Origin: Haplodiscus bocki
Lineage: Eukaryota
DNA length: 64,000 bases
Assembly (NCBI GenBank): GCA_965655095.1
Contig: OZ296652.1
Location: 112,158,001-112,222,000 of the forward strand
Direction of reading: 5' to 3'
The translations under genes were made by a program, and so were the position numbers. The notes under the pieces were generated by a model, which saw only the letters and a program-made list of their open reading frames with translations, was not told where the DNA came from and did no database searches. Each line of letters begins with the position of its first letter. Positions within the stretch are counted from its first letter, which is position 1. Of the stretch, positions 4,264-28,500 are shown in pieces.

Positions 4264-5274
4264 CTATCGTCCATGAACTCGGAGGCGGTGAATTTGGTAC
4301 AGCAAATGCGTAGAAAAATTTGAAGTGCATAAAGTGCAAGTGAAAAAGTCATCAGAATGAGAATTTGGCACCTTTAGTATCGACAATTGAGTTGAATGAG
4401 CAACTTGTTTAGAACTCTTTGCAGAACTAGTTGGTATTTTACCTGCTTTTAAATTAGAACCTTCATTCAATTCATTTTCATTTCTGCCAGTATTTTCAAC
4501 ATACAACTTTTCGGGAGAACTGCGAGAGATTTGTGCAATACAGATTTGAGATTGAACACAAAGGAAGTTTTCTGACCGTTCAGTGGTGACAACATCCACT
4601 TCAGTTTCTGAGCCAGTGGTAGTTTCGTCATAAAACTCTGAATCTGAGGAGGTTTCATCATGCAGGCCACAACTGAACCTTGACAACAAGTCCGATAGTC
4701 GGTTGTCCACAATACTAGGCGACTGGTCGGTCGTCTGTTTGGATGAGATAAAAGCACTATCTATTCTGGCAAGTTTGACAATAGCTTTCATACTGCTCAA
4801 CTGAGGGTTGTAAGTGATGCTTTCATCGTGCACAAGCTTCAACGAACTTTCTTTTGCTTCTGTCCAAACTGCGGTGAAATGTGATAGCCCATCTTTTTTG
4901 AGTTGCATCTTTGGACATGAAGAAAGGTAGTTAGCGTTTTCATCGGGCGAGTGTGATCGGTAGAAAGGTAAAGCACTGTTACCCTCTGAAGAGCTGTTGC
5001 TGCTACTCAAATTCAACAATTCTTCACATCCGGAGCTGGAAACTTTTCTGTCCTTACAGTTTTTCCTAATATGCTGACGTAATTCAGAGAAAGTAGTAAA
5101 GTTGGAACAGCATTTGCGACACTTGAAATGATCCATGTCTTTCTCTCTTTGCCATGTCTCATGGTAATCCTTCACGTGCGGAGGGCTAGGACTTTCCACA
5201 AAGAAATTGCTGTCCAATAAGGCACTTAGATTAATTGTTTCTAGCATCACAGCTTCCTTCACACGCACTCCATT
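4264..5274 (-). CDS. Zinc-finger protein (C2HC + C2H2 fingers, Ser/acidic linker); probably a terminal exon
   Basis: 334-aa open frame with FKCRKCCSNFTTFSELRQHIRKNC and FTCTLCTSNFSTHLLYQIHRLRVH. A TTTCAG acceptor-like site lies at 5275-5280, just upstream of the frame. Confidence 0.6.
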   Translation of the reverse strand, partial: NGVRVKEAVMLETINLSALLDSNFFVESPSPPHVKDYHETWQREKDMDHFKCRKCCSNFTTFSELRQHIRKNCKDRKVSSSGCEELLNLSSSNSSSEGNSALPFYRSHSPDENANYLSSCPKMQLKKDGLSHFTAVWTEAKESSLKLVHDESITYNPQLSSMKAIVKLARIDSAFISSKQTTDQSPSIVDNRLSDLLSRFSCGLHDETSSDSEFYDETTTGSETEVDVVTTERSENFLCVQSQICIAQISRSSPEKLYVENTGRNENELNEGSNLKAGKIPTSSAKSSKQVAHSTQLSILKVPNSHSDDFFTCTLCTSNFSTHLLYQIHRLRVHGR

Positions 5275-5649
5275 CTGAAATTGCCGAACTCATTCATTAA
5301 TTAAACGACTGTACCGAAAATCAAGGGTGTCTCTTAACTGCCACTTGTCATCGAAAGTCATCGAGAGTCAGGTCACATTTAATTTGTCTACAGCACCATA
5401 CACAGAAGCGGCCAAACACGGCAACCCGATGACATAGTTCAGTAAACAATGTAGCTGTCGTAGCAAGTTTACAATTGCTTAGTTTGCAATTTTGAAGTTT
5501 TACAATTAACTAATAAGATGTCCGGAAAAAGGACCTGACATATCACTATAAAACCGAATGCCTTCGACTTGGATATAATTAAAAACTGAGCGTCAAATCG
5601 AAACAATTACGAAAAATGATAGAAGTAAAAATGGCAGTTTTGAGGGAAG

Positions 5650-5833
5650 CTAGTGAATACCATTATTTCACACGAGAGTAGTGTATCATCCTGCCGTATT
5701 TGCATACAGGGTAAGGACTAGATGAACTCTGTCAACAGGTAATCCTAAAATTCAAAAAATATTTACCTCACCCAGAGTCGAACCCCAAAAATGATGCACG
5801 GAAACTGCCCTACTAACCACTGCGTCATCTGCC
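5650..5833 (-). mobile_element. tRNA-derived SINE-like element
   Basis: The minus strand reads GGCAGATGACGCAGTGGTTAG (Pol III A box) ... GGGGTTCGACTC (B box) at tRNA-like spacing, but no intact cloverleaf is evident. The 3' boundary is approximate. Confidence 0.55.
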
Positions 5834-6200
5834 TTTGAGCTCATGTTGATGAAACTTTAAAATATAGAGAAAAAGGCTCTTGAGTAAAATTCAACTCATT
5901 CTAAAATTCAAAATTTTGACAGCAATTCAAAATTTCAACCGCGCCTAGATTCGATCAGTGAAATGATGCACGGAAAACTGACCATAAAATTCGACTTGTA
6001 CGTCATAAAATTCAGTTAGTCAGCTACAAGATTAGAAGCAGAGGCACACAGACCGCCCGCAATGAAAGATTTCAGCTAAAATTTTGATTGCTAAATTCTG
6101 TCATGAGGTGCAATTTTAGTCATTGCGATTATGGAGTGAAACTGTTTCACGTTTTGACGGCATCATTTATCCCAAGACAATCCTCCTTTCAATGCTATTA

Positions 6201-6635
6201 TGACATGCCCGTCAGATATTATTAATAATAACACCCCGTCCCCTTCTCAGCGCCGTTCTTTTGTTAAAACTTAACTATGATTCAAGTACTCTCGAGTGCC
6301 CTTGTCAAATAAAGCTTGCTTTCCCAAAACACATAATCCTGTTATCACTGCTGTTTAATATACAAAACATTCTTTCCACCCTTTCTTCCTACGTACAATA
6401 ATATCTCTCTATAACACTTTAGTGTGCATTTTACACACACTCAACATTTCTGGAACACTTTTGTCTACTGTATGCAACATTTATATGCAAACGTAATAGT
6501 TTCCCTGCTGTATTACTTAAAGTTTAATATTGTTACTGAAGTCAAAACTGGCCCGACCCTTGCCCTTACAGTCATTAGACCCTCGACAATTTCATAAAGA
6601 AGTTCTAGAAGAAATTCCAATCAGATCAACCCGAA
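6201..6635 (+). repeat. 5' LTR, left half (interrupted by LINE)
   Basis: Colinear with 22962-23395; starts TGACATGCCCGTCAGA; 4 mismatches to the 3' LTR in the first 60 bp. Confidence 0.93.
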
Positions 6636-6870
6636 TATATGTATAATTTCTTTAACCCCAATTTGCGGGAGGATAATTTATTTTTATTTTATTCATTTAT
6701 AAGTATGAACAGTTTGAAAACATTTGAACTATGTGGATACCACAGTTCACACAGCGCCGCATAAAGTTGGAAGCCTAATTGTTGTGATCAATTTATTAAA
6801 TAGATCTTTTCAGGGATTTGATGCGGGGGTGGCAGTTGACACTCCAGATCGTTGATTCCTATAATTACTT

Positions 6871-6924
6871 CTCGGTATTGCCATAGTACTATCGGTATTG
6901 CCGTAGTACTGTCGGTATTGGCGT
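6871..6924 (+). repeat. 20-bp tandem repeat (~2.7 copies) in the LINE 5' UTR
   Basis: TCGGTATTGCC(A/G)TAGTACT-type units start at 6872, 6892 and 6912. Confidence 0.85.
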
Positions 6925-7063
6925 AAAAACCTGGAGAAGTTTCCAATACACTACTACAATATTCTCAACCTTCAAGACACAAAGTACAACAACAGGCCAC
7001 CTGCTTAGGTTCCAAAAACGTTTTGTATTGATATAAATCGGTTGCAAACATTATTTCTACAAT

Positions 7064-7820
7064 ATGGTCAAAAAAGGCAAAAAAAAGTTCAACAAAAACC
7101 TGTCTATGCTCTACATACTCTGCTGAAATATCAGACAATTCCAATTCCATATGTTGCGATTCGTGTAATAACTGGCATCATGGGTCTTGCGTGAACTTAT
7201 CTGCTGAAAATATTTCTTTCCTTGGGAGTAGTAATAACCTTTTTTGGAAATGCAACAGTTATTTTTCCATTAAGGTTACGCCACTTAAAACACTGGAAGC
7301 GAAAATTGACTCCGTCCTATTCAAACTAGAAGAACCCAGAACTGAAATACAACCAGCTCAACCCTCAAAACCTATAGAAGTATTACAAAACAATAAGTAT
7401 GATCATCACTATAGAGTTCGTATTTCCGGAATTAGTGAAAGCAAAAAAAATCATTTATTGATAGACAATTTGCTGATAAAGAAAAAGTGGAAGAAGTATT
7501 CAAAAAACTAAATGTCAATTGTCCAATTGTCGAAACAAACAGACGTGGTAAATTCATTGAAGATCGCCGAAGAAAACTAATAGCTACTTTCTCATCACCA
7601 TGGGATGCGCGTTTAGTAATATCTAGTGCAATTCAGAAAAAAATTATTTGAAACCGATAAAATTCTTATTACAACGGATTTATCACCATCAGATCTTGCA
7701 ATAGAAAGAAAACTATTATCAAAGCGCCATGAACTGATATCCAATGGTGTGCCAAAAGGAACTCTGAAAATACGCTACTTGAAACTTTATCAAGGCAATA
7801 AAGAAGTAAACGTCGACTGA
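7064..7820 (+). pseudogene. LINE ORF1 (PHD finger + RRM-like region), frameshifted
   Basis: Translates to ...SICCDSCNNWHHGSCVNLSAENISFLGSSNNLFWKCNS (PHD), then VRISGISE and ILITTDLSPSDLAIERKL, as in CR1-type ORF1. Confidence 0.8.
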
Positions 7821-7928
7821 CTAAATAAAGAAGCAAAATGTCTTTCAATCAGTTGTCAGAGCCTTCTCTCACTTAATCGTCGCTTATCGTTACTATCAAA
7901 AGTAGTTTTAATATCCGCCGACATTCTT

Positions 7929-10543
7929 TTGTGCACCAAAACTTGGCTCGATGAAAATTTTACACAAGTTATTTTTACTGACGACAATTATTCAATTATA
8001 AATCGTTCGGACAGATATACTGGTTCACACGGCGGTGTATTGGTTCTGTCTAGGAAATGTTTAAAAGTGCGCAAAGTATATCTAAATGCCGATTTTATGT
8101 GCTCAGTTATTTATAACAATGTACCTATTTTTACCATATACAATCCACCCTTTACCAGTGATTTTCGCATCAAAGATATTATTCTGACAGAGAATATCGA
8201 TAAAACTATTTCCAAAGCCAAATGTGACAACGTTATTATTTGTGGTGATTTTAACATGCCAAAAATCGATTGGAACAGCATGACTGAAAGCACAACTTCA
8301 GAGTATCCTTATTCCTCGAAATGTTAAATAAAAACGGCTATGAACAACTTATTACTTCACCCACCCATCAATCTGGAAATATTCTCGGCTGTGTGTTTAT
8401 AAATTATGGGTCAACGCCCTTTACCATAGATGAAAATTCATTTTCCGATCACTATTTTGTTGAGTTCGACATTCCGAGAACACACTCTTCATGTGACTCT
8501 ACATCTCAGCCTATACTATCCCTTAAACCAGATTACCCAATAATAAATCAGTGTATCGGATCTAATTTATTCCCATTTTTTATATCTGATACGACTGCCT
8601 ATTATTTCCACTGGATTGGAGAATTAACCTCCATTAATCAACCCTTCTTCAAACGTAAGCGGCAAAGAAGAACCCAATTTCCTAGATTTTACAGTTCGCA
8701 CACTATTCAAATGCTCAACAAGCTGCATACTACACACAGAAGAATCAATCGACAACCAAAGTATATTCCCACACCATCAGTTCAAATATCAACCACCAAT
8801 GTACAAGAATCTATTGCTCTTGATACCCATATATTCATTGAAAAATTTGTAGACGCGAATCTCAACGTTAATGATTGCTATAAACTGATCAATTCTTTCC
8901 AACGTAGCAATAAATTACCAGCTTGTATGACTCTAAACGAGGAAATCCTAACTGATGATCTTAATAAAACGAATGGTTTCAACAAACATTTTTGCAGTGT
9001 TTTTAAGAGAGATAGTCTACCATTTTCTGATTTCTCTGAAAATACCCTAAACAATATTGAATTCACAATTCAAGACGTCGATAAGGCTCTACGACAAACA
9101 AAACGTGGTTCTAGTACAGATGCTATTAATGGTGATTTCATCTTACACACTTCTAATGCACTGGGTATCCATTACCATAATTTATTAAAGAACTTGTTAA
9201 AACACTCATATTGGCCAAATGAATGGAAGCAAGCTATAATAACACCCCTTCATAAATCTGGTAATATCGAATCGATATTTAATTATAGACCAATTTCTTG
9301 TTTATCAAAATTATCATTAGTATTTGAGCACTTACTGTTCAATAAGTTATATGACATCTTCTCCCCCCAACTATCCGGCTCCCAATTTGGTTTTATGAGA
9401 CGCAAATCCACGGTGCTACGACTAATAATTTATTTCCAGCCTATCTACAATAACGTTGACACAAATACAGATTGTTATGCACTTTATCTCGATTTCTCAA
9501 AAGCATTTGATAGCGTATCTCACGCGACGCTACTCGAAAAAATACGCCTTTTTGGTATTGGAGGATCTTTGCTAAGGTTGCTATCGAGCTACCTAACAAA
9601 TCGCGTTCAATGCGTTAAACTCAACAATATCATATCAGCGTCATTACCAGTCACCAGTGGTGTGCCTCAGGGATCAGTTTTGGGTCCACTCCTATTTTTG
9701 GTTTTTATCAACGACCTGCCAACCCGACTATCGCACTCAAAAACATTCCTGTATGCCGATGATCTTAAGCTTATTCATAACAACCTTCTAGAAATGCAAA
9801 ATGATATATTAGCACTTTCTCAGTGGTCACAGGTAAACAAATTATCATTCAATGCCAAAAAGACACAGCTCATTTCATTCGATTTTCGGTCTCAAGACTG
9901 CATCACAGATATTCCAGATCTTATCCTGGATGACCATGAAATATTTCTTCAAAAAAGCGTGGGTGATCTCGGTCTATCTTTTTCAAGCAACTTAGCTTGG
10001 TCTAAACACATATCTGATCGTCTAAAAGCATGTTACATTAGAATTATATTCTTAAGAAGATGTCTACCGCTGCATTTACATAGCCAAATCAAGACTAAAT
10101 TGTATAAGACCTATATTTCGCCAAAATTACTTTACGGGTCACAAGTTTGGTCCCCGAATCGGAAAGACATATCTAAATTAGAACAGTTCCAGAAAAACGT
10201 CTCAAAGTGGATATGCAAGGGTGCTACATACAAGAGTAGATTAATCTCGTCCGGTTTACTTCCTATGAATCTTCTCCTGAAAATAAACGATCTGCTAGTT
10301 CTCAACCGAATCCTAAATGGCACATATGATTTTGATTTTCATAACTTTTTATCGATCACTTACCCCTGTGACAGTTTTTACTACAACACTAGATCTACCC
10401 TGAAGCCCGTTCTCAAGGTTAAATCAACTCGTAAAAAACAGGCCGACAATCACTTTTTCCAGCGAATTGTTCCCCTGTCAAACTGGTTGATGAAGGAGCA
10501 CAATGTCGACTTTTTCGTTGAGCCTAACATCTTCAAACCTTGA
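7929..10543 (+). pseudogene. LINE ORF2: APE endonuclease + reverse transcriptase, frameshift near 8320
   Basis: IICGDFNMPKIDW, SDH, NYRPIS, YLDFSKAFDSV, GVPQGSVLGPLLFLVFINDL, LYADD. Confidence 0.93.
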
Positions 10544-10649
10544 GTGAAACAGTTGTTCAAACGCTTATTTGCATCAGATGAATAAGTTTTATATATTTTA
10601 GTTTGTCATATTGTTCAATTTTTAGTCCTTACGAATAGTAATAAAGTCT

Positions 10650-10673
10650 TACATACATACATACATACATACA
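10650..10673 (+). repeat. (TACA)6 microsatellite tail of the CR1/L2-like LINE
   Basis: Read directly; follows AATAAA at 10640-10645. Confidence 0.9.
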
Positions 10674-10682
10674 CAATTCTAT

Positions 10683-13600
10683 TCAGTCCAGTTTTTTGAG
10701 CTTAGTATGAGTGTAGTCAGTTTTATACAATCGTCTTGAATTTTTAACGTTCAGGTTTGCACAGTTATTTGGTCTGTTAGCAGATTGCAATTTGCAGTTT
10801 AAAAAGAAATGAAATGGTGTTTCTTCCGATTCACCACATTCACACATCGGTGAAGCACCGAGACTCAATTTCCACTTCATGTCAGCTAGTTTTAGGGAAT
10901 TGCCAATCAGGAACTCGCAGATTTTTTTTTAGCTCTGTATGAGTTGCCGCATATCATCGGAGAGATATCGTTAAATGCTGTGACACTTGCAGTGAGGTTC
11001 GCGAGAAAGAAGTTGTTAAACCCTCTTTTCCATCGTTTGCGCCATTGGTCAGTGATAAAACCCGCAATTTGGTCATTAGTATACTCGAGAATGGTTTCCT
11101 TGTTCATAAATCGACTGTATCTCTTCAAACTTGATTCTAGTGAGTTAGCTCGGCTGCGAGATTTACTAATGGATTTTAAGTGAGTATCCCGTACGAGATC
11201 ATCAATCTGCCTGATTTTGATGGCGAACTTGACAGTTATGCTTTCGCAGTAAATGTCAATCGGTGGTACTCCAGTCAATGCTTCACACGCTTCAATAGAG
11301 GGAGGTGGACCATGTTTGAAAATTTTTCTCATAACATTATTCTGAAGGCATCTGAGTTGGTGGGTATTTTTGTGGTACCAAAGCGGTGCACCATACAGGG
11401 CTTGCGGCACAATAACTGTTCGATAGAGATAAACTTGGGTCGTGAGAGATAGACACCATCTATTTGTGCATTTAATGGTAATGGCAGCCCAATTACGCTG
11501 GGCTTTCGCTACACTCAGCTCAGTATGCTCTTTAAAAATAGTTTTATTCTCAATGATTATCCCTAGAAACTTTGTGGATGTTTTAACTTTACAAATGTCA
11601 GAATTTAGCGCGATTTCGAATGGATCTCAGTTTTGGAACCATTATCAGCCATGCGCCATTTGTCGCACCACCGTTTAATATTATCCGCAGCGGCCTGCGT
11701 TCGGCTTGCAAGTTGTAGAATATCATCGGCAGTTAAAATCAGAGCTGTGTCATCCGCAAACTTGAATCGAATGGGGTATTCATCGATGAAATCAAAATTG
11801 AACAAAATGAACAATGTTGGCGAGAGTACACTGCCTTGCGGTAAGCCGATGTGAATCGGAAAATTATTTGAATGATAGTTTCCGATCTTTATGAAGGATA
11901 ATCTGTTGCTACGAAAAGCCTGGATAATACTGAGCAAGTTTCATGTTATTCTGATGTTCTGAAATTTGTACAAGAGGCCGTCTATCCAAACACTATCGAA
12001 AGCTTTCTCCAGTTCTCTATTCAGCAAAAACCGCTGGTTTTTTATTTATCTGAAAATCTTCCAACTCTAATTGCATTCTGTACAAAGACCGAACGGTGCT
12101 TCTCTTTTCTCTGAAACGTTCTTGTTCTTCTTCGAATATTTTACAAGACGTAAAGAAAGTGCGCAATCTTCGGTTTATCATTCTTTCGAATAATTTTCCA
12201 ACATGACTGGATAAAGTTATTCGTCTGTAGCTGGAACTGAATGCATAATTTGATTTGCCTGGTTTCTTTATGAAGATTACTCGAGATGAGTTCCAGGACT
12301 CGTGCCAACAACTATTGAAAAGTTTCAGTAGCCTCAGTTTCATTCTAAAACCGAAATGTTTCAGCATGGATGCATGAATCCCATCATTATCGAACGCGTC
12401 CGACTGAGGAAAATCTTTGATAGCACATTCTAGTTCATACATCGAGAAGTCCTCGTGGAAGAGTTGTTCATGCTCAGCGTTGATCTGCGGGTCCTGATTA
12501 CGAACCCTCCGTGTCACCTCAACGTAATGATCCTCATCGAATGATCTTCCCTTGAGATGCTGCCCTGGGAAAAATGTTTTTCTCAGTTCCTCAGAGATCT
12601 CTTCTTTCGAAGTAGCCAGTCCTCCATCTGAACTTTGCAATGGGCCTATTGCGAATTCTCTCATTTGGAATACATGCCGAAATTTTCGCCAAAAATCTTT
12701 GCCTTTCCTGTAACTCAATCCAGTTAAAGTTTCTCGCATCCACTCCGGAGATTTCTCAGATAAAAGGCTCTTAAACTCATTTTTCGCATTATTAAGTCTT
12801 TCTCCATTTGAGTTGCTGAAGCAGTACTTGAATTTTTTCGGAGAGCTCTGAGTTCCGCACTTTTTTGAGATGGATCTTCAAACCAGAAAGGTTTGCTATG
12901 CCTGGAGCTTCTTTTATAAGGAATGGCCAATCGTGTTGCTTCGGTAATGTCGACAAGTACACTTCCCCATTGATCTGTGGCGCTTGGGCATTGAACTGCC
13001 TCAAGTGATGCATGCGATGAATTTTCTAACACGTTCTGCCAGGCTTCCCAGTCTGCTTTTTGCAACCACGGTTTGGTATTTCCTTCTTCCGTCGTCCTAC
13101 TTATGTTGCATTTCACTATTAAAGGTATATGTCCACGTTGCGGCGCTCCTGTGAAGAGTTCAACATTTGGGTCAGTTGTTAGCTCGAATCCTACTTGCGT
13201 AGCGATTCGTCCACTTACAATGCATAGATCTATAACACTCGAACCATTGGATGACAAAAAAGTTTTTTCTCCATTATTAAGGATAATGTCTTCAGCAGAA
13301 AGACTTTCCACAAGGAGATAACCGTTAGGATTGCATATACTATCACCCCACAGGCAGTGTCTAGCATTGCAGTCTCCCAAGAACAACACTCCATCAAGGT
13401 TGTGCTGATGGTAGAAGTTTACCACTTTTTCTCTCTGTTTTATAAATTTTTCCATCGAAGCGGTTTCATTTGGTTTCAAGTATGCTGTACCGATTATGAT
13501 CTGGAGCCCCGCCGCCACCGTCAAGATCCAAATGCTGTCATGCTCTTTCAGTTCAAGTTCATTTAAACGAGTGTAACTCATGTCCTTATTTATTATGATA

Positions 13601-13761
13601 GCGACGCAATCACTTCTCACGCCACGACATGTTGATTCCGTGAAGTAATTTGCAGCGACGTCCTTATCTAGTTGTCTATTTGTTTCGTTGAGGCAACAGA
13701 TTGTCGGTTTATGTTTTTCAAGGTAGTTGTTAAAAGTCAGCTTGCTATGCTCGGCAAAACC
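10683..13761 (-). pseudogene. LINE ORF2 (APE endonuclease, RT, C-terminal CCHC), fragmented
   Basis: CCLNET, GDCNARH..WG, SVIDL (endonuclease); SYRRITLSSHVGKLFERM, GLPQGSVLSPTLF, FADD (RT); CECGESEETPFHFFLNC (CCHC). No RNase H seen. Confidence 0.9.
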
Positions 13762-14208
13762 ATCAACCCGAAAGCAACTCAACCAGAAGACCAGTTGCCG
13801 AAGAAAACAATCTCTCCTCTGCAACTCAACAAGAGACTCTTCAAACGTCCCCAGAAACAATTCTGAAGCTATGTAAGTTTTGTAAAACAAAAATCCAGTT
13901 TAAAAGTGTTTTGTCTTTTCCTTTCTCCGCTTTCTCAGTAATATAAATTCTTTCCTAAAAAACCAAATACAATTTTCATTCACTTGAGATATCCCGCTAG
14001 CAACCACCAAATCAAAAACACCTAAATGGTAATTTTAGAAATTACTGACCTCCTTTCTAAATAACAGTCGTCCTCCGCATCCAAAATTTTTTTCTAGCAA
14101 AGTGTTTTGAGAAGCATAAGACTGTTACACTATGTAACGATGCAAATCGTGCCTCCGAATCCAGGAGAATCAGAAAGAGTATGCGAACGAACATAAAAAC
14201 CTATGTCA
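13762..14208 (+). repeat. 5' LTR, right half
   Basis: Colinear with 23385-23824; ends CCTATGTCA. Confidence 0.93.
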
Positions 14209-14536
14209 AATCCCAATCGCTTTTCGGCCCGAGTCCTCTTTTTCACCACATGATTCCAGTATTCATTATGGGCTTGAAGGAATTTATTACCACCAACACA
14301 GTGAGTCGCACCCACTGGTTCAATTTTTTCCAAACACGAACTACCCAAACCACATTAAGTCTACAAGTACTTTCTTTTTCCGAACTCTAGCTCAAATCTG
14401 GAGAAATTTTATTGAATTCTTGTCGCACTATTTCACTGCAATCCTGTACGCAGGTAGTGGTCCCGCTCAACTTGACGATCTCAGACGCTAAAAATTCGAC
14501 GTAGTTTGATTTTTCTTTGAGTTTTTTTTGTATACA

Positions 14537-15760
14537 ATGTCGACAACCGCCGCTACGTCAACGACCACCACCGCCACCTTTACAAACGCAGGAGGAGCCA
14601 CTCCTAGCACACCTACCTCCTCCACTGCCACCACCAGTGCAACAAGTACACCAGTTTCGTCGAGCGCAACTAGCTCAACGCCTACTGCAAACCAAAGCAA
14701 TGGTGCTGTTGCACCTGCCTCGCCGTTTGCGACACCTTTTGGCCCCGGAGGTGCCCCTTTCCTAACTCCTTTGCCATCATGCCTTATGTCAGAAAATTTC
14801 ACTGGTTCTGGTGACTTTGAGGTATATCTACAGAACTTTAACACTGCCGCGTTTCTTTCTGGTTGGTTTTCCCCAGCCCATGACAACAGACCACATTATT
14901 TCGCTCTTCGGCTGCGCCGAAATGCCCTGCATTTCTACACAACGCTTTCGGCAGCCCAACAAACTGACTTCAATTTATTAGTTGATGCCTTCCGGCAGAA
15001 CTATTCAACGAATGTGGACATACTGAAAGCAAGACTGAAAACTGCGCGGCAGCAACCCAATCAAGTCATTTCTTCCTTCTTGTGCGACATTCGCACACCT
15101 GCGCGACTCGCCTATTGCGCCTTTCCTCACTTAGTGGAGCAAATTGTCCCGACTAGTTTCATCGAAGGCCTGAGCGATGATGCAACGCTTCCATGGGAAC
15201 TTAAAAAGTCCAAACCAGCTACAGTTGATGATGTTCTAGCCCTGGCCATGGAATTATATTCTTTCCTGGAAATTGAGCAAGGAGCCCCATCAACAAGCAA
15301 AATGCCCAAGACCAGCGTAAACGCGATCTCCTGTGAAACTCCTGCGCCACCCGCCAAAAAATGGATGGACGAATTTGTTCCAACGCTAACGGAGGGATTC
15401 AAGAACGCCATGCCTAAGCCGAGCCAAGAAGTCTCCTGACAGCAAAATAGTAGGCCAAATCGCAACCAACCTTCTCGGTTGAACTGCACTGACACCCAGG
15501 GAACCCGCACCGTTCGGTTCCAGAATAGTTCGAATGGAGGACGAAAAACTAACAACCCGGACAAAAACTGGTGCGGATCCAACCGCCAAAATACGAACTC
15601 TAACCCGCCGAATGACAACAAAAATAGCTCCGAAGGACCCTGGAAAATTTGTAAACATGACAATCATGCCTTGAACGATTGTAAAGCTTGTTTCAAGTGT
15701 GGAAAGAGTGGAGACTTCGGCAATGAATGCAGAAGCAAAACGTCCAACAATTTAAACTAA
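14537..15760 (+). pseudogene. gag: gag (Ser/Thr-rich N-terminus, capsid-like core, degenerate zinc knuckles)
   Basis: ENFTGSGDFEVYLQNF, LKARLKTARQQPNQ, SFIEGL. Stop at 15437-15439. Degenerate knuckles ICKHDNHALNDC and CFKCGKSGDFGNEC. Confidence 0.85.
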
Positions 15761-18700
15761 AAGCGTCTACGCCAGAGGGTCAACGCGCAGACAAAGACAC
15801 TTCACCAGGCCCACAAGTTCAAACATTGAATTCCGTTGTTGATCACCGGAGTGTGTTCATTCAAATAAAAAACTTTGATCGCATAATTGAAGCGATATGC
15901 GACAATGGAGCAAGTGTGCCATGCCTCAGTACTGAAATCTATGACTCCCTCAAAACGAAACACTCCTTGAAAATGGAGACCTCAAGAACGCAACTAAAAG
16001 CCGCAAATGAATTGCCCATAGAGAAGCGAGGCATCGTACGCCTCCCGGTAAAACTGTGTGGAATAAATGTTGAACATAAAATTCACGTTTTGGCTAAGTC
16101 AGAGGCCCACTGCCTGATAGGCCTTGATTTTTGGAAGATCACCAATATGATCCACTTTTTTCGAAGAAGAAATTGCGAGTGAATGATGACACTTTTGTCC
16201 CATTGTACCACAAACATTATACCATACAAACTGATCAGGTCTTCCGAGTTGTTTCCACTGACTATGTTTGAATCCCAACAGGTCATTCGATGATCATACC
16301 GGCCCACATCCCAGGATGGAAGCGCCCACTAATAAAGTTGGCCGCCGTATTCGAGCCGCAAGAACGGTTCAAGGTAGACAAAGAGGTCAGTGCTGACCAT
16401 GTCTTGTTCAATTTCGCCGAGCAAACATTAGTCGCAATGGATAAAATTCAGAACATTAGTACACTCAAAAGCCTCAAAAGTCCGAAACTAACCAACAAAA
16501 AGGATGCCAAATACGATTTGAAATTTGTCAAAAAATCTATCGATACTGGTTTTTCCCTGGAAGCAAAAGCAAAGTTCTCTGAACTAATCAGTGACTTCTC
16601 TGATGTGTTCTCGAAAAACGAAAGGGATATCGATCAATGCGATGTCACCGCCCACAAAATACAAACTCAACCAGGTTTGCGACCAGTAAAACTCCCTAAC
16701 AGAAGGATGCATCTCCACTACAAACAAGTCTTACAAGAAAAAGTTGATGCTTTCTTGGAAAAGAAACTTATCACGCCTTGTCATAGCCCGTACAGTGCAC
16801 CAGCCATGCTCGTCCCGAGGAAAAACCGCGAACTCCGCTTAGTAATTAACTACCGTCAATTGAATAAACAAACCATCAAATCCTGTTGGCCTATTTCTTA
16901 TATTGAAAAAATATTGATACTCCTGAGGGAAGTGAGTACTTTACCACGATCGATATGTCGTGGCGTTTCTATCAGCTGCCAACGGAAGAAGGGAGCCAAG
17001 ACATCACTGCGTTTAGTACGCCCTCGGGTACCTTCAAATGGCTCCGCATGCCCATGGAACTGACTGGTAGTCCGAACACCTTCCAGAGTCTTATGAAGCA
17101 AGTCCTTGTTGGCCTGACTTGGAAGACAACCGTCCCTTATTTAGATGATTGTATCATCTTCTCTTCTACAGCGGACGAACATATCTAGAGACTAAGAGAA
17201 GTCCTTGAAAGGTTTGGTCCTGCGAACCTGAAAAAAAAACCGACAAAGTGTGAGTTTTTCCGAACTCGCGTCCCCTTCCTTGGCCATATCATCAGCAAGA
17301 ATGTTCTAGAGGCGGACCCCGACAAGATTGTTGCCGTTAAAAAGTTTCCGATTCCAACAACCCCAACTGAAGTAAAATCATTCCATGGATTGTGCTCCTA
17401 TTATCGCCGATACGTAAAAAACTTTGCTGAAATAGCCCGACCTCTCCATAAGGCAGGTGAATTAACTACAACTTTCAATTGGACACCGGAAGCCCAAGGC
17501 GTTTTTGAAACTCTGAAGTCTCGACTAACAACTACGCCCATTTTGGCCTTTCCTATGATGAAGTAAACTTCCATCCTGCACACCAACGCCAGCCTAACGA
17601 CTATGGGTGCTGTCTTGCTGCAAGTACAAGATGGAGAGGAACATGTCCTCTGCTACGCCTCCAAAGCTTTCTCGAATGGCCAGACTAGATATTCCGCGAC
17701 GAAAAGAGAATTGTTAGCTGTCGTTAATTTTACACGACAGTTCAGACATTATCTGATTGGTCAAAAATTCACAAAAATCACTAATCACCGTGCCCTCCAA
17801 GGGCTCCACAACTTCAGAGACCCGGATGCACTAACCACCCGTTGGCTCGAGAAACTCGCTACTTTCAACTATGAGGTAGTGCATAGGCCCGGAAAATTGA
17901 TCAGCCCTACCAATGGTCTCTCCCGAACACCTCTTAGAGCATTTAATGCAACTGTAACTGAGGACCCAGCTGCACATGCGCCTGAAGTAGACCAGGAAAA
18001 CACCCAATCGTACCTAGGAAAGTCCACGAGACCCCAAACATTTCCATTAATCGGAAATCCAAGGCGACGTACTGCAATCAATTGACTCCATTACTCACTG
18101 TATTTCAGCTGATTTCAAGCTAGGAGCAGGAATCGCTCGAAGAATTAAGCGACGCTTTCCAATGCAGTACCCGGACAAAGAAGCCATTGCTAGCGAAGGC
18201 ATTTGGCCGCAACGGATCCCGAATCGCAACGTTTTGTGTACCACTTAGAAACAAAAGCGCGGTATTTCCACAAGCCTACTTATAAAGCCTTGAGGGCATC
18301 TTTAGAGGCAATGCAAAGGCATACCGAGAGCAACAATGTCCAGCGCATCAGCTTGCCCCAAATAGGCTGTGGCATCGACAAGTTGGACTGCAAAAAGTCC
18401 GGAAGTTGTTCCACGAAGTTTTCCAGCCTACGAGTATAGATCTTACTGTGTTTTTCAAACCCCATTCAGGAACGCTGACTTCAAGTCAAATCCCAATGGA
18501 TTCCCTTATTGATACCGATAAGGCCAAAGCCCTCGATCTTTCAGACAACATACCTTCACTGGCGTCTGCTCAGAGAAACGATCCAGCACTCAAGCACTTA
18601 CTTCCTTGGATCACACGTGGTAGGCCGCCGAGCTCACAAGAATTACAGGGACTATCCCAAACAACAAGGAAATTGGCACACGAATTCCGAAGTTTAAAGG

Positions 18701-18900
18701 TCGTTAATGAAAATCTTTGTCGAGAATTAATCCACAAAGGAGGTTCATTGCACCATCAACAACACATGCCTGCGTCGTTAGTACCCCAAATTCTGAAGTC
18801 GATCCACTCATCGCCCACAAGACTCAAGCCCAACCTCAACGCAACCTTCGCAACAGCACCACACAGCAACGTAATGCTCAATCGTTGTGAAATGCAATAA
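15761..18900 (+). pseudogene. pol: pol: aspartic protease, RT, RNase H, macrodomain, N-terminal integrase remnant
   Basis: AICDNGASV (protease); SPYSAP, INYRQLN, RMPMELTGSPNTFQ, PYLDD (RT); RYSATKRELLAVV (RNase H); ILKSIHSSPT (start of the integrase Zn region). Many frameshifts and stops. Confidence 0.92.
18033..18460 (+). pseudogene. TARG1/OARD1 (Poa1p-like) macrodomain inside pol
   Basis: Across two frameshifts it reads EIQGDVLQSIDSITHCISADFKLGAGIARRIKRRF...RFVYHLETKARYFHKPTYKALRASLEAMQRH...ISLPQIGCGIDKLD...FHEVFQPTSIDLTVF. This matches the OARD1 motifs HCIS.D..MGAGIA, LITK...KPTY..L..SLEAM and PRIGCGLD. Confidence 0.9.
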
Positions 18901-19019
18901 TTCCACCTGACCTAAGTCAATTCAATTCCCCCGCCAGCTCGAAGAAGAAAAAGAAAAGTTCGCCAAACTTATAAATTTTACTCTTTTCTGAACGCTAATT
19001 TAACAACTTTTACCCTTCA

Positions 19020-21350
19020 AATCCTTCTTTTAGGCTCCCCTTCCTACTTTCACTTGTCCTTCTCAATAGCCCGCCCTCTTGTTACTTTGTGATCTACTAC
19101 TCAACTCATCTAAATGATCAACCAGAAGTCCCAGTTTTCAAGAAAGGTGCTGCCTTTCTCTTTAAATACCAAGCAGTCTTTTCCGAAAGTGAGAGCAAAG
19201 TTCGAGGGTTCTCCCCGTACCCAAAAAGCCCAGATGCCAATCTTACTGGAGCTGAAGAGTTGTGGAACATAGCGACAATACGAAAAACCGGAATTGGTGG
19301 CATATATGTCCAAAAATTTTATGAATTCCCACAAATCAACGAAACATATGGCTTATTAACGACACAGTTGAAGGATCGCGTAGAATTGATCAAGCTGGAA
19401 GTGAAACAATCAAAGGATGAGCAAGACAAACTTGCAGACGTAATGAAGTCTTTTCTTCCGAAACAGTATCAGAAGGACGTGGCGACGCTTCCAATTTCGA
19501 AACGATTTATTGGCGCCATGGCTGCTCTTGGAGCAGGTGCCGGGTTGATCCTTGGCGACCCGTTCAAAGAAACTGCATGTACAGCTGTCTTCACTTTTAA
19601 CTAGTGCGATGACACAAGCAGTTTGTCCAGTTTGTCCCAGGTTGTGGACCAGATCCTGAAAACGCAGGAAGAAACATTAGCGACCTTGCAACGTGTCAAG
19701 TCGGCCAATGATTCAAACTTCTTCCCACTGGGAAACGAAGTCCGAGCAACGTTACAAAACGTTAAGAACCTTCGTGATGCTGTGAATGATTACCTACAGG
19801 CTCTGCAAGATCGAATAAAAGGAATCCAAGGAGATTTGATACAACATAAAGAAAGTCAACGAAGAAAAGCGCAACAATCCCACTTCCTCCAAGAGATTAG
19901 ATATGTCATCTCCCAATTGGGTACTCTTTACACTCACATAAAATCTTACCAAGCTGCGTTCTACGCTTACAAGATTAACTTGTTCTCAATAATCTCGTCC
20001 CTTGCTAGTGGCCAAAAACCCTCCCAGTTCCTTTTACCCCAGGAAATTGCCGACATTGTACGCACCCTGTCTGAAGAAGAGAGTTACCGTGGTACGAAAC
20101 TCACCCCTGCTGTACAGCCTGGTTTCGTAGCTGCTTTTTACGAAAATCAACTCGTGTTGGAGGTCACGTTAATTCTGCATGGTATTTCAGTTGTCCTTGG
20201 TGTTCCTATGAACTCTAAGTCCTCTACTTTTAACGTGTACCACGCTACCCCGCTTTATCCTTCTAATGGCGATAACAAAACAGCCTCCTTGTTTCAGCTC
20301 TCAAAACCGTTTTTGACTGTGGCTGAAGACGACTCCAGATACCCTGAGTTGGACAGCTTGGCGCTACAGCAATGCTTGGCGAACAACCGTATTCGCCTCT
20401 GTCGCAAAGGGTTCTCGACGACCACTGATGATACCCTCCTATGCCTGAGCTCTTTAATGTTCAATTACTCTATCCTGCTATTGCACAACTGCCCCGCCGT
20501 TTCTGTCCTCTTACCAGATGCCCCACAAGCCTTTTACTTAGCCGAAGGATTATACCACGTTATATAGCGAGAACCGCTTCTTCACCTAAAAAATGCTAGT
20601 GATTTACATGGTGTCAGTGTTCCAACCATTTCTCGTCAAGCCTGCATTTTGAGACCCAGCTGTCACAGAACCCTAACCCTGAATAAAGGAGACTTAGTCC
20701 TTAAACCGGACATGGACTACTGCTCGACCAGTCCAGAGCCCTTCTTTGCAACTATCAGGCTAGTCCCTTCCCTAGCGAAAATTTTCCAGCGTGTACCTCC
20801 TTCTAATCAAGTCTTCCACGTCTATTCGTTGGGTGAAGCCCGCCATTCAATCCTCAGTAGCGTCCGCATGGAGCTAGCAGAGCTTCCGGATGTACAGAGA
20901 ATGTCAGTTGAATCAATTGATTGACTAGAAGCACCTATCGCCCAGTATTATTTGTCAATTTTTCCGGCCTCATCACAAGCGCTTGAGTCATACCTCCCTT
21001 TTTGCACAGCTGTTTTGTTCTCGACTGTCTCAATTGCACTCTCATTGTTGACTTTCACCAAAAGTTTTACCCTGTTCCGGCGTCAATGGAAACGACTTTT
21101 CCTCCACCCGCACCAATACTTCAAGAGCTCCAAAGGAAGACTCTTGCACGTTATGGATGATGAAAACATGTTTGCAGCCTCTGACGGTACCACCGCCTTC
21201 CTTCAGCTTAGTCTGGAGGAATTTACTGCCATAAAGGCCCTTGCTAATGAAACCTTGAATCAACCACCCCATTCAACTAAAGTACACACTGCCTGTAATA
21301 ACCCTCAGGTCCCCAGTCGTGTCTATCCAGACATCACAGCCCCTCATTAA
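19020..21350 (+). pseudogene. env: env-like class I fusion glycoprotein, three in-frame premature stops
   Basis: ORFs 19089, 19623, 20649 and 20952 share one frame. Hydrophobic signal-like stretch (LPFLLSLVLL), basic cleavage site plus fusion peptide ISKR|FIGAMAALGAGAGLILG, heptad repeat, Cys-rich region, TM segment (AVLFSTVSIALSLLTF) followed by RRQWKR. Confidence 0.85.
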
Positions 21351-21788
21351 GCCGAGTCTACAACGTAATCTAACTAAACCCTTGAACATTTCTTTACTAT
21401 AACATGTCTTACATATCATATTTAAAATCTGAACACCTTGCACTTCTGTGCCCCTTTTGTACGTTTCCGTTTTCATCTGGCTTTGAGTCATATCCTGGCC
21501 ACCCTCTTGCACGTTTCAGTGCCCGTTTTCTTGTGCGTTTCTGTACCTGCCCAGCTTTTGTTGGCCCTGTCTGCACGCGTCTGTGCCCCTTTCTGTTCAG
21601 ATTTCGTTCTGACTCGTGGAATGAACAGAGAGACATGGTCTCCTCTGTCAGTTGAACTTAACGTTTCACAGTATACGTCTCCGTATACAGGCACCTTGCT
21701 TGATATGTGCAATAAAAAAAACAAACAATGAGAAAAACGACTCGATGCATTTTTCATTTTTTCCAGCCCTTCTCCCTTTTTTTCTCTT

Positions 21789-22880
21789 TTGTGTTTTAAT
21801 GTATTTAGCGTGCTTTGTTTCAGGTTTCCCTCCAAGCGTGCCTCGGGATCGCCTCTCTACACCTGCAGCGGAAAAGTTGCCCTCATATCTCCTGGAGATG
21901 TCATCCACATCTTAGACGAATGGGAGTACAAAGTGCTCCTACTGAACGCCCACTCATGTAGAGTGGTTCTAAAACGCGTGGATCAGGCTTCTAACGGATC
22001 TTATTCGTCGTCCTGTCACCAGCGCAGCTTCATCTGCCCCTCCACAGCCATAAGCTTGATGCCCCCAATCTTACACGATGCCTCGGTGACAGCAGACGAG
22101 TTGACTCAAAATTGCATGTGCGAACTAACCCCACCCCCCATACTACCAGAAGTCGATGACATTGCAACACAGTGCACTTTTACGGATACCTGCTCAGTCT
22201 CCACTCAATGCTACTTTGAGGCAGACGAATACACCGGTTTTAAATGCCAAAAATTCGACACTGTAGATCGTCTAATACAAGGTTTTGAAGAAGCAGAAAC
22301 ATATGCCAATGCCGCTTTCGCTGAGCACTGCTCCCAAGTCAACGAGGTTAATCAACAGAAAGAAAAGATCGCAAACTTACAACAGCGCATCACCGCCCTT
22401 ACAACAGAGAATGAAGCTCTACTTAAACGGACCCTCGAACTAACAGAGGATGTATCCTCCCTAGGATCGATAACAGCAAACAGCCGTCAAGTGCCCGTCA
22501 GGCAAAGAATGGTGTGGTTCAACTTCCTCAAACTGCCTCTTCTGCAAATGCCTTTAGACATATATCCTGAAGACGTGCCTCCCGAATACTTCTTCGATCT
22601 TCTGAATTGTTCCCCTTCTTAGACCCCTGAAGTAAAACAAGAAAACATCCGCTGTCTTTTAGAACTTTTACATCCAGATAAAAATCCTTCCGTCTCTCCT
22701 CTTGCTAGCCAATTCGTTCCAATCATATCCTATTTAAAAACAATTCTACCAGACCCTGCTCTTGTGCCCGTATACAAATGTTGCGACTTCTTTGCCGTTG
22801 TCCGACGCCAAAGAGGATCCAGATCCTGCAAAAAATGCGACCCGTTTTTACAATCACTTGATGATCTAATGGATCTTTAA
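21789..22880 (+). pseudogene. ORF4: coiled-coil protein with C-terminal DnaJ J-domain; one internal TAG at 22620
   Basis: Reading through the TAG gives YFFDLLNCSPS*TPEVKQENIRCLLELLHPDKNPSVSPLASQFVPIISYLKTILPDPALVPVY, which aligns to the J-domain pattern YY..LGV...A...EIK..YR.L....HPDKNP.....F..I..AY..LSDP..R..Y. Ends at TAA 22878-22880. Confidence 0.75.
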
Positions 22881-22961
22881 AATTGTTTTATATTTTTTTA
22901 TATCGTAACAATTGTTGTTTTTTTATTTGCGAGGCGCAAATCCTCTAAACGGCAAGTAATA

Positions 22962-23824
22962 TGACATGCCCGTCAGATTTTATTAACAACAACACCCCGT
23001 TCCCTTCTCAGCGCCGTTCTTTTGTTAAAATTTAATTATGATTCAAGTACCCTCGAGTGCCTTGTCAAATGAAACTTGCTTTCACAAAACACATAATCCT
23101 GTTATCATTGCTGTTTAATATACAAGGTATTCTTTCTACCCTTTCTTCTTACGTACAATAATCTCTCTCTAAAACACTTTAGTGTGCATTTTACACATAC
23201 TCAACTTTTGTGAAACACTTTTGTCTATTGTATGCAACATTTATATGCAGTCGTAAATTTTCCCCTGCTGTTTTACTCAAAGTTTAACATTGTTGCTGAG
23301 GTCAAAACTGACCCGACCCTTGCCCCTGCACTCATTAGACCCTCGACAATTTCATAAAGATTTTTTAAAAAAAATTCCAATCAGATCAACACGAAAGCAA
23401 CTCAGTAAGAAGACCAGTTGCCGAAGAAAACAATCTCTCCTCCGCAACTCAACAAGAGACCCTTCAACCGTCCCCAGAAGCAATTCTGAAGCTATGTAAG
23501 TTTTGTAAACCAAAATTTTAGTTTGAAAGTGTTTTCTTTTTTCTTTTCTCTTCTTTCTTAGTGATTTAAATTCTTTCCTAAAAAACCAAATACATTCACT
23601 TGAGATATTCCGCTTGCAACCGCCAAATCAAAAACACCTAAATGGTAATTTTAGAATTTATTGATTTCTTTTTTAAATAACAGTCGTCGTCCGCATCCAA
23701 AATTACTTTCTAGCGAAATGTTTTGAAAAGCATTTGACTGTTACACTATGTAACGATGCAAATCGTGCCTCCGAATCCAGAGGAATCAGAAAGAGTATGC
23801 GAACGAACATGAAAGCCTATGTCA
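22962..23824 (+). repeat. 3' LTR (863 bp, uninterrupted)
   Basis: TGACA...TGTCA inverted termini; colinear with both halves of the 5' LTR. Confidence 0.95.
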
Positions 23825-24267
23825 ATGGTGCTGTGAAATATGCTGATGTCAAGTTCGCTCGGACGACTCCAGGAAAGGTGAGAAAGTTTGCCTGGTTTTT
23901 ACATATTACGTGATTTTGTTTTATTAATCGAGAATCACCTCTGGTGAAGTGATCCCAGCGTTCTTGTACGAGTCTCTTGAGCCGACGGTGGAAGCTAAAC
24001 CAAATCGATCAACTTTCGGTAATAATATTTTGCCTCGCTTTGTTTGATCTGTCTGGCACTGCTTGTCACTCTATCCGAGCTTTGAAGCTCTCAACGGTCA
24101 AAACTAGTGGTAAATTTTACTTTCACGCTGCATATTGTGCTAGAAATGTTTTTAAAAAGTGAAGTAGCAGAATACAGTTACATCAAATCCTGCCTACGGG
24201 ACCTCATGGAGGAGGAACGAGAGATGTTGGCATTATTTCAGCAAACCCTGCCAACAATTATCGCCTG

Positions 24268-25529: not shown

Positions 25530-28500
25530 TAAAGTAGTGCTCAAGTAGAAGGCAATTTACTCAATCTTCTTCAATGTATTCTTTTGTCATCGAAACAACT
25601 GAATCATGCTTTGTTTGTTATGATTGTACACAGCTGGCAATTTTCCAGAGCCAGTGAGTGTGCTAACAGTTTCAATTGACTCATCATTTTGCCAGAATTC
25701 TCTGTACAAATCATTTTTGAGTTGCTTTTGAGCCAAGTGTGTGACTTTTTTGCCTACAGTTGTTGTTTTTCCACCGTATAGAAATGAATACATTTTCTAT
25801 TCGATTCCAAACCAATGCACTCCCCTATTGGTTGCCCCGTAAGTTCGTTTTTGAAATTCAGTTCAACTACTTTTTGATCGGTATTGTGCCAATCATGAAA
25901 TGGGGATAGATGGACAAGTCGAAAAATTGTCTGAGTTCAACTTTTTTTTCAATGCCTCATAGAAGTTCTTCTTGACCTCAAACAAGAACGAATCAGTGTT
26001 TGAGTACAACAGCTTGCAATTGAAGTTAGTTTTCATCACATTGTAATTGAAGTCGTATATGTAAAAGTTAGCCACACCAAGCTTTGTGGCATCCACTAAC
26101 GTAGGTTCATTCCACAAAATGTTTCTTTTATTTGTTGCTATTGCTGACAAGTTGTCACTGAAACTTTTGGAACCGGTGAACAATCGAAGCACTCGGCCTT
26201 GTCAGCTATTTCGGCTCACATTTGTTTGGTTCGTCTTCCTCTACAACGTCTTTCCGTAACAGCTAATAGTCAAAAATTCATGGAAACATTATTCAACTAG
26301 TTTCTCGTTTCTTGGCGCTTGTGAGTGTTGAGCTTGATGTAAAGTTTCATCCACTTATCTTGGTTGAAATGTAATATTCGGTGGACCTTCTTCACAACCA
26401 ATGTCAAACTAACATTAATAGTGATTTGGATTTAGTGTTGTGTGTGGTTAGGTTTGTTAGAGAGGGTTTTAATCATTTTTTTACAAGTGCTTGTTCTGTC
26501 TGTTTAAGGTCGGCGATCCAACAACTTCAATTACCAATCACTCAGGTTTTTAGATATCAATTCCTTTATTGGGGCTATTGGCAAGTCAGTCTGCGCATCG
26601 CGCAAATATTCGGGATACTGTAGGTCGACTTCAAATATATAATCATCAGTGGAGTCATCAGGGTTGTTCAGAACGTCTTGCAAATTCAAATCACCGGCTA
26701 GCTTAAAATTGTTCAAAGGCAATGAAAATTTTTCCATGATACCTCCTTGAAAGTTATTTCCATCCACTAACACTCCGAAATTTTGAAGTTTATCTGGGAT
26801 AAATGTGTCAAGGCACGTATTGTTGGCTCTGAAATACCTTTTCTGGAAGACGGAAAAACCGCCACCACGAATCATGTTTTCCAGCATCTCTAAATGCTAT
26901 TGGTCTGTCAAAGAACCGAGGTTCACACTTGAGGTTCCAATGAAGGTATCACTTGAAAGTGGGAGCATGTGAAATTTTGAGTTTATTTGTTTCAGCCTAT
27001 TTGTTTCATGAGAGACCCGATGGAGTTCCTCCATTACACAAGCAAGTAAAGGTGAGTCAGTTTTCGAATGTAAATCGTGGTAGACACCGAGATTTTTGCA
27101 CCTGAATGTGTTGAAGTAATTGAGGGCCATGTTCCATTCTGCCTCTCTGATGGTTACTTCACCATCTCTCAAGGAACTCTTCCGATGTGTTTTTATTGAT
27201 AAATTCTTCTCCTTGATGTTGTTATTATCACCCTAATATGAATAAGGACAAAAACCTTTGCAGTGTAACAGTAGTGTTTGTTCGTTGCCATATTGCTGGA
27301 GTTGTTTGTCGAACAAATCAAGTCTATCTCGTGGAAGGTAGCTCACAAAATTCTCCTATGATTTTCCCTTGAAGTGAAACGAACTAACAAACCTAAAGTA
27401 CTTGTAAAACCGTTTGTTCGTTGTTGGCTTGTTACTTGTTCACTGGAAGTCACAAAGAGTGTCAAATTTTTTTTCGTCTGTGGAAAGTAAACACAATTCA
27501 AGTCTATTTTCTCGCAAAAACTTTTGCAATTGTTTGAAAAGTGGTGAAAATCACAAATAGATCGATTGAGGGCAACAATTGGAGCGAAATTCATGGCCTT
27601 TTTTCTGAGGTTGCACTTAGTATGAGCATCACCGACAAACCTTCACTCTAGTGACAATGGTTTAATACTTTGTCATCGTCTTCGTCAGCAAACAGTTCCT
27701 CACATATCCGGCAGGCAGTGACAGATTGTGGTCCAGGTGGCGCGATACCTCTATAGAACCTGCACGCTTGTTCCGTGTTATAGACGTTTTTGTTATCTGT
27801 TGTGTGTCTTTAACAAGTTTTGACATACATTTTCGCGACCGTTATAGCAGTACAAAGGGTGGACTAGGAATGCCATGCGCTACGTCGACTGAGCAGTAGC
27901 CGCTTAGTTTATGTAACTCGATAGTCTCCGTTGACTGCTGCGGATAAACGCAACTTGATACCGTTAAAATGGGCGATTCCAGGTCACAATAAACAACAAT
28001 TGGTGCGAGCCAGCCTGCTTTCAATTCCTGCTGGTGACCTCAATGCGATTCGTGGTAGGCAATTGAATTCTGGTGGGTTCGTTGTTGAAACAACTTCGCA
28101 TATGTCAGTCCAAAAATTCTGAGAGAAACCGATGTAATGACAGTTGCGACAAATGACATACCTTGCTCTTAATTTTCTACGAGTAACTTTGTTGATCACA
28201 TTTGTTAGAGTGGTTATGAGAACATGATGATACGTTGAGCCCTCATCCAATAGCAACAAGTCTATTTGCAAACCACTTCCTTGTTTCATTGAACTTGGAA
28301 TACGTACCAATATCTTCCCCTCAAAGACGTAAACAGTCTCTCATTAGCAATTGTATTTCAGATGAATGATATGTTGGGAAAATTGTTCAGGTGTTTTATT
28401 GTCTTTTGATAAACAAGATAAGAGTAAATGTATATGTTACTGGAAAATGTTAATTTTGCAGTTGTTGAGATATTCAAACTTGGGTAGTTAGTCAACACCC

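Follow-up and report, generated by a model that had tools for sequence, protein, structure and literature searches.

The 64,000-nucleotide stretch of DNA analyzed here (the window) raises the question of whether the open reading frame behind the env gene of an LTR element, ORF4, encodes a J-domain protein cut short by a single stop codon, and what such a protein would do for a mobile element. The window holds a decayed env-bearing Ty3/gypsy LTR element in the order LTR-gag-pol-env-ORF4-LTR (Table 1). Stops are present in its gag, pol, and env, and about 500 residues of pol, the integrase included, are missing. The insertion nested in its 5' LTR carries a reverse transcriptase (RT) on the plus strand and an endonuclease and RT on the minus strand, with a duplication of about 10 nt at its flanks. 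The LTR repeats are about 89% identical to each other, a value that we do not trust as a measure of the age of this copy because both repeats pass the LTR end of the sister elements by about 80 nt (positions 14130-14209 and 23746-23825); this overrun and the absence of a primer-binding site behind the 5' LTR copy suggest a rearrangement of the window element. Elsewhere in the window, at least 14 tandem copies of an AT-rich unit of about 2.2 kb, the inner ones 85-99% alike, occupy positions 34400-64000, and minus-strand fragments at 25893-28340 resemble by eye, and without Pfam support, a Polinton/Maverick-type DNA polymerase B.

Table 1. Features of the window element and of related loci (window positions unless a locus is named)
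Feature	Position	Strand	Basis or remark
5' LTR, first part	6196..6635	+	89.5% identical to 22957-23395; split by nested insertion
Nested LINE-type insertion in 5' LTR, foreign to the element	6636..13761		Pfam RVT_1 and Exo_endo_phos matches; insertion edges
5' LTR, second part	13762..14209	+	89.1% identical to 23385-23825
Candidate splice donor AT^GTAAG in 5' LTR	13871..13879	+	Motif position; intron would begin at 13873; AT of start codon inferred
gag	14537..15760	+	1 stop; 60% identical to uninterrupted sister gag; weak zinc-knuckle match
pol remnant (protease, RT, RNase H)	15727..18971	+	Stops, frame changes; integrase region gone
Putative env splice acceptor, phase 2	19020..19034	+	Intron would end at 19033; site and phase common to 21/21 stretches
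env, F-type by kinship	19034..21365	+	4 stops; 80% identical to uninterrupted sister env
Putative phase-2 splice acceptor of ORF4 (TTTCAG^G behind a pyrimidine tract)	21799..21824	+	Intron would end at 21823
ORF4 coding exon, ~351 codons	21824..22880	+	One TAG in window copy
Small beta-barrel (SH3/KOW/Tudor-like, weak structural likeness only)	21891..21980	+	Most conserved part of ORF4
Coiled coil, core of longer helix	22341..22466	+	Weak bZIP_1/TSC22 matches; long helix in model
J domain, helices I-IV, broken after helix I	22584..22775	+	Pfam and PDB matches; sister copies
TAG private to window copy	22620..22622	+	Sense codon in 29/29 sister loci
HPD motif	22671..22679	+	Kept in 22/29 sister loci, counting decayed ones
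Cys-rich tail [C/H]C-x13-15-CxxC, possible zinc site	22779..22838	+	Pattern in most of 18 tails
3' LTR	22957..23825	+	Second donor-motif copy at 23494
Pol with Macro match	L071:1921-6714; L100:407-5290; L095:21-4958; L091; L042
Fifth ORF	L098:9181-9921; L099; L100:9108-9896; L101:9341-9955; L107; L108

With respect to the identity of the element, uninterrupted pols of the clade have the order RT-RNase H-integrase in five of five cases, with a protease wherever the stretch includes it, and LTRs with a TGGTGAC-type primer site were found in 19 of 20 fetched pairs (the site being degenerate in one). One of five envs exceeds the Baculo_F cut-off (E=1.8e-7); the other four have no Baculo_F match of their own and are homologues within the clade at 47-62% identity, and a comparison of env with PDB sequences gave no match. 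By its pol order, its LTRs and primer site, and its F-type env, the element is an env-carrying Ty3/gypsy retrotransposon. As a separate observation, Pol contains a match to the Macro (ADP-ribose-binding) domain between RNase H and integrase, over the Pfam cut-off in three of five pols and weak in two; the word Macro is absent from the main text of PMC13524379.

The interrupted frame has the layout that an earlier note on this DNA had claimed: in frame 21732-22880, a single TAG at 22620-22622 is followed by 85 open codons to the TAA at 22878-22880, and reading the stop as X leads to HPDKN at 22671 and then to the CC..CKKC tail described there. For the annotated 277-amino-acid ORF, the end at the TAG stands, but the start set by the ORF finder does not, since what it takes as the first codons is the polypyrimidine tract of a predicted splice acceptor (whose intron would end at 21823). 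The note had proposed to check the TAG codon in sister copies, and in the 29 other loci that we fetched from the same genome this column holds a sense codon in all 29 and a stop in none; the stops of these sister loci are scattered over 31 other columns. This makes the TAG a private stop in an element broken throughout, in agreement with the reading as a decay mutation that the note preferred. Its side option, a programmed readthrough site yielding a short and a J-bearing form, is suggested by the 85 open codons behind the stop, but with a stop shared by none of the 29 sisters (and hence not conserved among functional copies), sister stops in other columns, an A next to the TAG, which is not a leaky context, and an element broken elsewhere too, we reject it as having next to no likelihood.

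The position of ORF4, noted earlier as that of a fourth ORF downstream of env, is not peculiar to the window, since in 39 of 40 ORF4-anchored stretches, too, ORF4 stands behind env and ahead of the 3' LTR. Env is directly upstream of close ORF4s in 20 of 20 fetched stretches (one of these without gag-pol) and upstream of distant ORF4s in 19 of 20, the exception being a tandem array. All 58 env matches have an ORF4 behind them (50 by coordinates and 8 by direct test) in an env-anchored search that reached close families only. Searching the 1.5-Gb genome, presumably that of an animal judging by the element type, with its own ORF4 gave at least 111 matches (108 scored of 1582 candidates), many of them without stops. 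Over all searches, ORF4 was found in about ten diverged families down to roughly 25-30% identity, several of which have LTR pairs that are 99-100% identical. ORF4 consists of four parts, namely, a small beta-barrel, a coiled coil, a J domain, and a Cys tail, and all four are carried by the full-length distant proteins among the 146 that a profile search of 1.84 billion representatives returned at E<=0.001. As such proteins occur outside this genome, ORF4 has relatives in other sources too; used as queries, four of them led to further families in the genome (best identities 57, 52, 41, and about 30%). ORF4 was confirmed in none of 76 pattern matches among viral_contigs, and three loci from metagenome_contigs are all ordinary J domains without the other ORF4 parts.

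Of 19 delimited LTR pairs, 17 are 98.6-100% identical, by which measure many families have moved recently. Between families, pN is far below pS (0.04-0.34 versus 0.19-0.84; with the J domain included, values are, for example, 0.06 versus 0.28, 0.24 versus 0.90, and 0.33 versus 0.87), and selection on ORF4 at this level is purifying; among decayed copies within one family, pN/pS approaches 1, as would be expected of copies once they have inserted. The capture of host fragments by LTR elements is known (PMC5408684), and ORF4 might on this precedent be a neutral passenger derived by chance from a host DnaJ gene, but the purifying selection, the retention in about ten families at such divergence, and a putative splice acceptor of its own speak against this, and on pN/pS and retention we reject it as very improbable. 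Taken together, the sequence data make it almost certain that ORF4 is a dedicated accessory gene of an env-bearing Ty3/gypsy clade, that the window copy is dead, and that its TAG arose after integration.

Some loci have unusual arrangements. L043 (reverse strand, 4155-9875) holds only env and ORF4 between LTRs that are 98% identical, with no gag-pol match; L105 and G000:C10:69.55-69.58 Mb form a tandem array with a unit of about 2.7 kb, in which ORF4 has an intact J domain and env and pol give no match; and L050:6616-8157 contains the end of env and the beginning of ORF4 in near-perfect duplicate, offset by 778 nt.

The earlier assignment of a J domain is weak for the window copy taken alone and was decided by the Pfam DnaJ matches of its sisters. 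The proposed PF00226 scan of the read-through translation did return DnaJ (E=0.079), but its 13.5 bits fall short of the curated cut-off of 27.8 bits; the best five PDB sequence matches of this copy are all DnaJ proteins, at E values of 0.048-0.51. Uninterrupted copies of the window's clade match DnaJ at E<=0.01 in 13 of 14 cases, two of the 14 exceeding the cut-off (34.8 and 30.6 bits), and ORF4s of distant families do so at E<=0.005 in 9 of 13, with six over the cut-off and a best score of 53 bits (E=3.7e-14). The best eight PDB matches of an ORF4 profile are DnaJ proteins, and element copies made up the bulk of the 150 scored matches in a blind PF00226 search of the genome. In a tree of J domains, those of the elements group together in a single clade that excludes 13 host J domains (support 0.90 on a short alignment, with an unreliable placement of P0046, which was cut at the wrong HPD). 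In ORF4, the J domain lies near the C terminus and neither a G/F region nor a DnaJ_C match was found, a layout other than that of class A/B Hsp40s, and the architecture of ORF4 is class-C-like. Most of 18 tails compared keep the pattern [C/H]C-x13-15-CxxC, with the second pair altered in three; at locus L050, the ORF4 tail is out of frame.

J domains are reported to need a basic residue at position 26 for function, and HPD is likewise reported as important (PMC1906734). HPD, the conservation of which the earlier note had wished to see examined in sister elements, is present in the helix II-III loop of the window copy, intact in 22 of 29 sisters, and present in 16 of 17 distant ORF4s; the basic residue at DnaJ position 26 (helix II) is found in the window and in 25 of 29 sisters and is absent from the L097/L098/L100/L102 branch and L095. 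The net charge of helix II is +1 to +5 in the 13 host J domains, +2 to +4 in L091, L092, L095, P0107, and P0132, and 0 in the window's branch, which does not have the overall positive helix II surface of J-domain proteins. The positive charge was lost along the tree and is mostly gone in the window's branch, where HPD-K and the basic residue at position 26 remain. This loss, like the lack of the basic residue in the L097/L098/L100/L102 branch, tells against a plain co-chaperone reading. Because of this net charge of 0, we do not file the window's branch as a functional J-domain protein, only as working like one. The loss of charge, along with Pfam scores below the cut-off in 12 of 14 close copies, would fit a J-like fold that in this branch no longer stimulates Hsp70 and now serves as a binding module or decoy. 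We regard this as improbable, since HPD-K/R and the basic residue at position 26 were kept while their neighbors drifted and synonymous sites saturated.

Structure models of ORF4 are of low confidence (mean pLDDT 50.7 and 45.5; 45.5 for the single-sequence fold of the J-plus-tail fragment) and show a three-stranded barrel, a long helix, and J-like helices. Their best-predicted part, a helix spanning residues 113-200 with pLDDT up to 88, bears out the upstream coiled coil that had been claimed from the letters alone; its bZIP-like matches cover the zipper only, and VIA-align with ORF4 gave coiled-coil rows only. The barrel, with strands at a pLDDT of about 60, has the lowest pN/pS within ORF4; its Foldseek rows, among them Spt5 KOW, are Tudor/KOW/Cren7 folds at a nonsignificant E of about 1-2, and no Pfam match below E 0.03 was found in 12 fragments. 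An origin of the barrel as a copy of the integrase SH3 domain found no support (hhalign probability 0.1; profile versus pol E>=0.25). In the J-domain region, the order of helices fits (pLDDT 37-58), and five of the eight top Foldseek rows are titled J domains, at E>=0.42; the ESM Atlas gave no ORF4 match at 0.9. As a whole, the anatomy of ORF4 is well supported.

ORF4 lacks a conserved Met. Conservation instead begins at TTTCAG^G in phase 2, behind a pyrimidine tract of variable length, and an in-phase YAG^G precedes ORF4 in 47 of 53 rows, among which four loci are represented twice. In distant families, a phase-2 acceptor stands at the ORF4 start in 15 of 17 cases, followed in two of these by an ATG of its own. 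Env likewise has a phase-2 YAG^G ahead of a signal-like segment: all 21 close stretches show it, as do 10 of the 16 distant ones, and in the families of the other six, env carries an ATG of its own. On the donor side, the motif ATGTRAG occurs in 11 of 15 LTRs versus 0.73 expected from shuffles (3 of 15 on antisense strands; the LTRs are not all independent), and it sits 140-260 nt before the end of LTRs that are mostly unalignable; two of the other four LTRs have ATGTRAG in the leader, and in two none was found. Given these phase-2 acceptors and an AT-ending donor in 11 of 15 LTRs, splicing probably creates both start codons. In this scenario, the AT-ending donor in the LTR or leader would be joined to the G of the acceptor before env or ORF4, forming an in-frame ATG, and alternative splicing would provide the start codon of either gene. 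We consider it very likely from these signals that ORF4 is translated from its own spliced RNA, with a splice-made ATG for env and ORF4 alike. Four sequence runs compared with the predicted sites consist of contigs at flat depth, a kind of data that does not bear on expression, and contain no joint there. The clade would in this respect resemble the springer subclade of Drosophila, in which env is reported to gain its start by splicing onto an AU-dinucleotide first exon (PMC12992720). In the youngest close family (L051:2433 and sisters), the leader contains an AT^GTAAGT about 296 nt downstream of the LTR, close to the position of AC^GTGAGT in other families, whose AT-ending donor is in the LTR.

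The ORF4 tree shares 7, 10, and 9 of 14 splits with the RT, integrase, and env trees, respectively; the deep splits agree, and no integrase split with support over 0.9 conflicts with the ORF4 tree. Between close relatives, ORF4 types are only 55-75% identical, or unalignable as DNA, on pol-env backbones that are 92-98% identical. In L091/L092, as well as in L042/L049 and L042/L048, both ORF4 and U3 fail to align on such backbones; in L042/L039, the N-terminal half of ORF4 is 68% identical and the J domain and LTR are 91-94% alike; and L098 and L101 are alike at the LTR start (92%) and not in ORF4. Judging from these comparisons, ORF4 behaves at shallow depth as an exchanged cassette, of which old types are kept under purifying selection and reshuffled. 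The pairs in which ORF4 and U3 change together would also suit an LTR-specific trans-activator, each type being paired with the U3 of its own LTR, with a J domain that remodels a repressor on the LTR; foamy virus Tas is such an LTR trans-activator. The bZIP-like coil and the nucleic acid binders among the barrel rows (Cren7 and Spt5 KOW, at nonsignificant E) point the same way. However, adjacency alone predicts the joint exchange of ORF4 and U3, the L042/L039 pair differs in the N-terminal half of ORF4 despite similar LTRs, the L098/L101 pair shares an LTR start without sharing ORF4, and the bZIP matches are to the zipper only, all of which leaves a trans-activator improbable.

We propose that the ORF4 product would act as a modular J-domain protein of the class C type, wherein client binding falls to the barrel and Cys tail and oligomerization to the coiled coil, and the J domain brings in Hsc70 to remodel the bound client. 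Recruitment of Hsc70 to a client by such a modular protein is likely. With respect to the client, one candidate is the element itself: ORF4 may be its own co-chaperone, through which Hsc70 folds or activates Pol, assembles or uncoats Gag particles, or matures Env. Hepadnaviruses provide a model, as their RT and capsid assembly depend on Hsp40/Hsp70, and it would be consistent with such a role that ORF4 was never found missing behind env and was inherited with pol and env at the deep splits. However, a fixed viral client gives no reason for the many old ORF4 types found on nearly identical pol-env, and folding of Env in the lumen is unlikely because ORF4, by its sequence, has no signal peptide. 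We therefore see a co-chaperone of the element itself as an unlikely alternative.

The client that we favor, albeit tentatively, is a host complex that restricts the element by silencing or transcription control, because one nearly constant set of Gag, Pol, and Env functions with widely differing ORF4 types, because old ORF4 types have been kept and reshuffled, and because transposon silencing involves Hsp70 and J proteins (PMC8616336 and PMC10627563). Overall, the best explanation, in which we have moderate confidence, is that of a spliced accessory gene whose product recruits the Hsc70 of the host and probably directs it at a host target. A bolder extension, which we offer as speculation, would make this clade a "complex" errantivirus: one AT-ending donor would serve two alternative acceptors, the J protein would turn Hsc70 on small-RNA or chromatin silencing, and ancient ORF4-U3 cassettes would be swapped on a gag-pol-env backbone as a counter-defense repertoire, with some members adding a fifth gene and a Pol Macro domain.

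The elements share with the errantiviruses of metazoans the gag-pol-env order, a protease-RT-RNase H-integrase pol, an F-type env, and a Leu-like tRNA primer site (PMC13524379 and PMC12992720), and the terms DnaJ, Hsp40, and ORF4 are absent from the text and supplements of PMC13524379 that were searched. Unlike errantiviruses, they hold further genes between env and the 3' LTR, namely, a fourth, which has a putative acceptor of its own with the phase of the env acceptor, and, in some families, a fifth. The fifth conserved ORF, present in one branch between ORF4 and the 3' LTR, has about 205 residues from its Met and a basic C terminus and gave no Pfam match and no usable ESM Atlas match. It carries GASSL and HD motifs, which we take to recall SGNH/GDSL blocks. 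In complex retroviruses, too, the accessory gene lies 3' of env. Like these viruses, the elements have a host-derived fold in an accessory gene that would be expressed from a spliced subgenomic RNA (PMC3185748), here read from the signals. They differ in having a pol of the Metaviridae rather than the Retroviridae type and a J domain instead of a cyclin fold or transactivator. Polyomavirus T antigens have their J domain at the N terminus, linked to origin-binding/helicase or PP2A-binding parts; that of ORF4 lies near the C terminus, behind barrel and coil. What we propose for ORF4 resembles these proteins of a DNA virus in that a viral J domain acts through HSC70 on host targets (PMC8567380 and PMC11720896). 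The element would operate in the manner of a complex retrovirus and, in its use of a J domain, in that of polyomavirus T antigen, but it belongs to neither group.

Bdelloid rotifer LTR elements have also captured non-envelope host-like genes, a GDSL esterase and a DEDDy exonuclease, as extra ORFs (PMC5408684); unlike ORF4, these are ORF3s in place of env, and that text mentions neither DnaJ nor ORF4. On the host side, the J protein SILENZIO acts with MBD5/6 and HSP70 in transposon control (PMC8616336), and Hsp70, Hsc70-4, and Droj2 act in the piRNA pathway (PMC10627563, citing Cappucci 2019). ORF4 would likewise place J-domain/Hsp70 machinery at the interface of host and transposon; unlike SILENZIO and Droj2, which are host genes, its J protein is encoded by the element. 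In the literature searched, we found no J-domain accessory gene for a retrovirus or LTR retrotransposon, and Repbase/Dfam and subscription papers could still hold one.

Accessory genes are what separates complex from simple retroviruses. The presence, in env-bearing Ty3/gypsy elements that moved recently, of a J-protein gene that is clade-wide, under selection, and probably spliced would mean that retrovirus-like regulatory complexity arose outside the Retroviridae, and ORF4 offers a small protein, amenable to assay, for asking whether mobile elements turn the Hsp70 system against host silencing.
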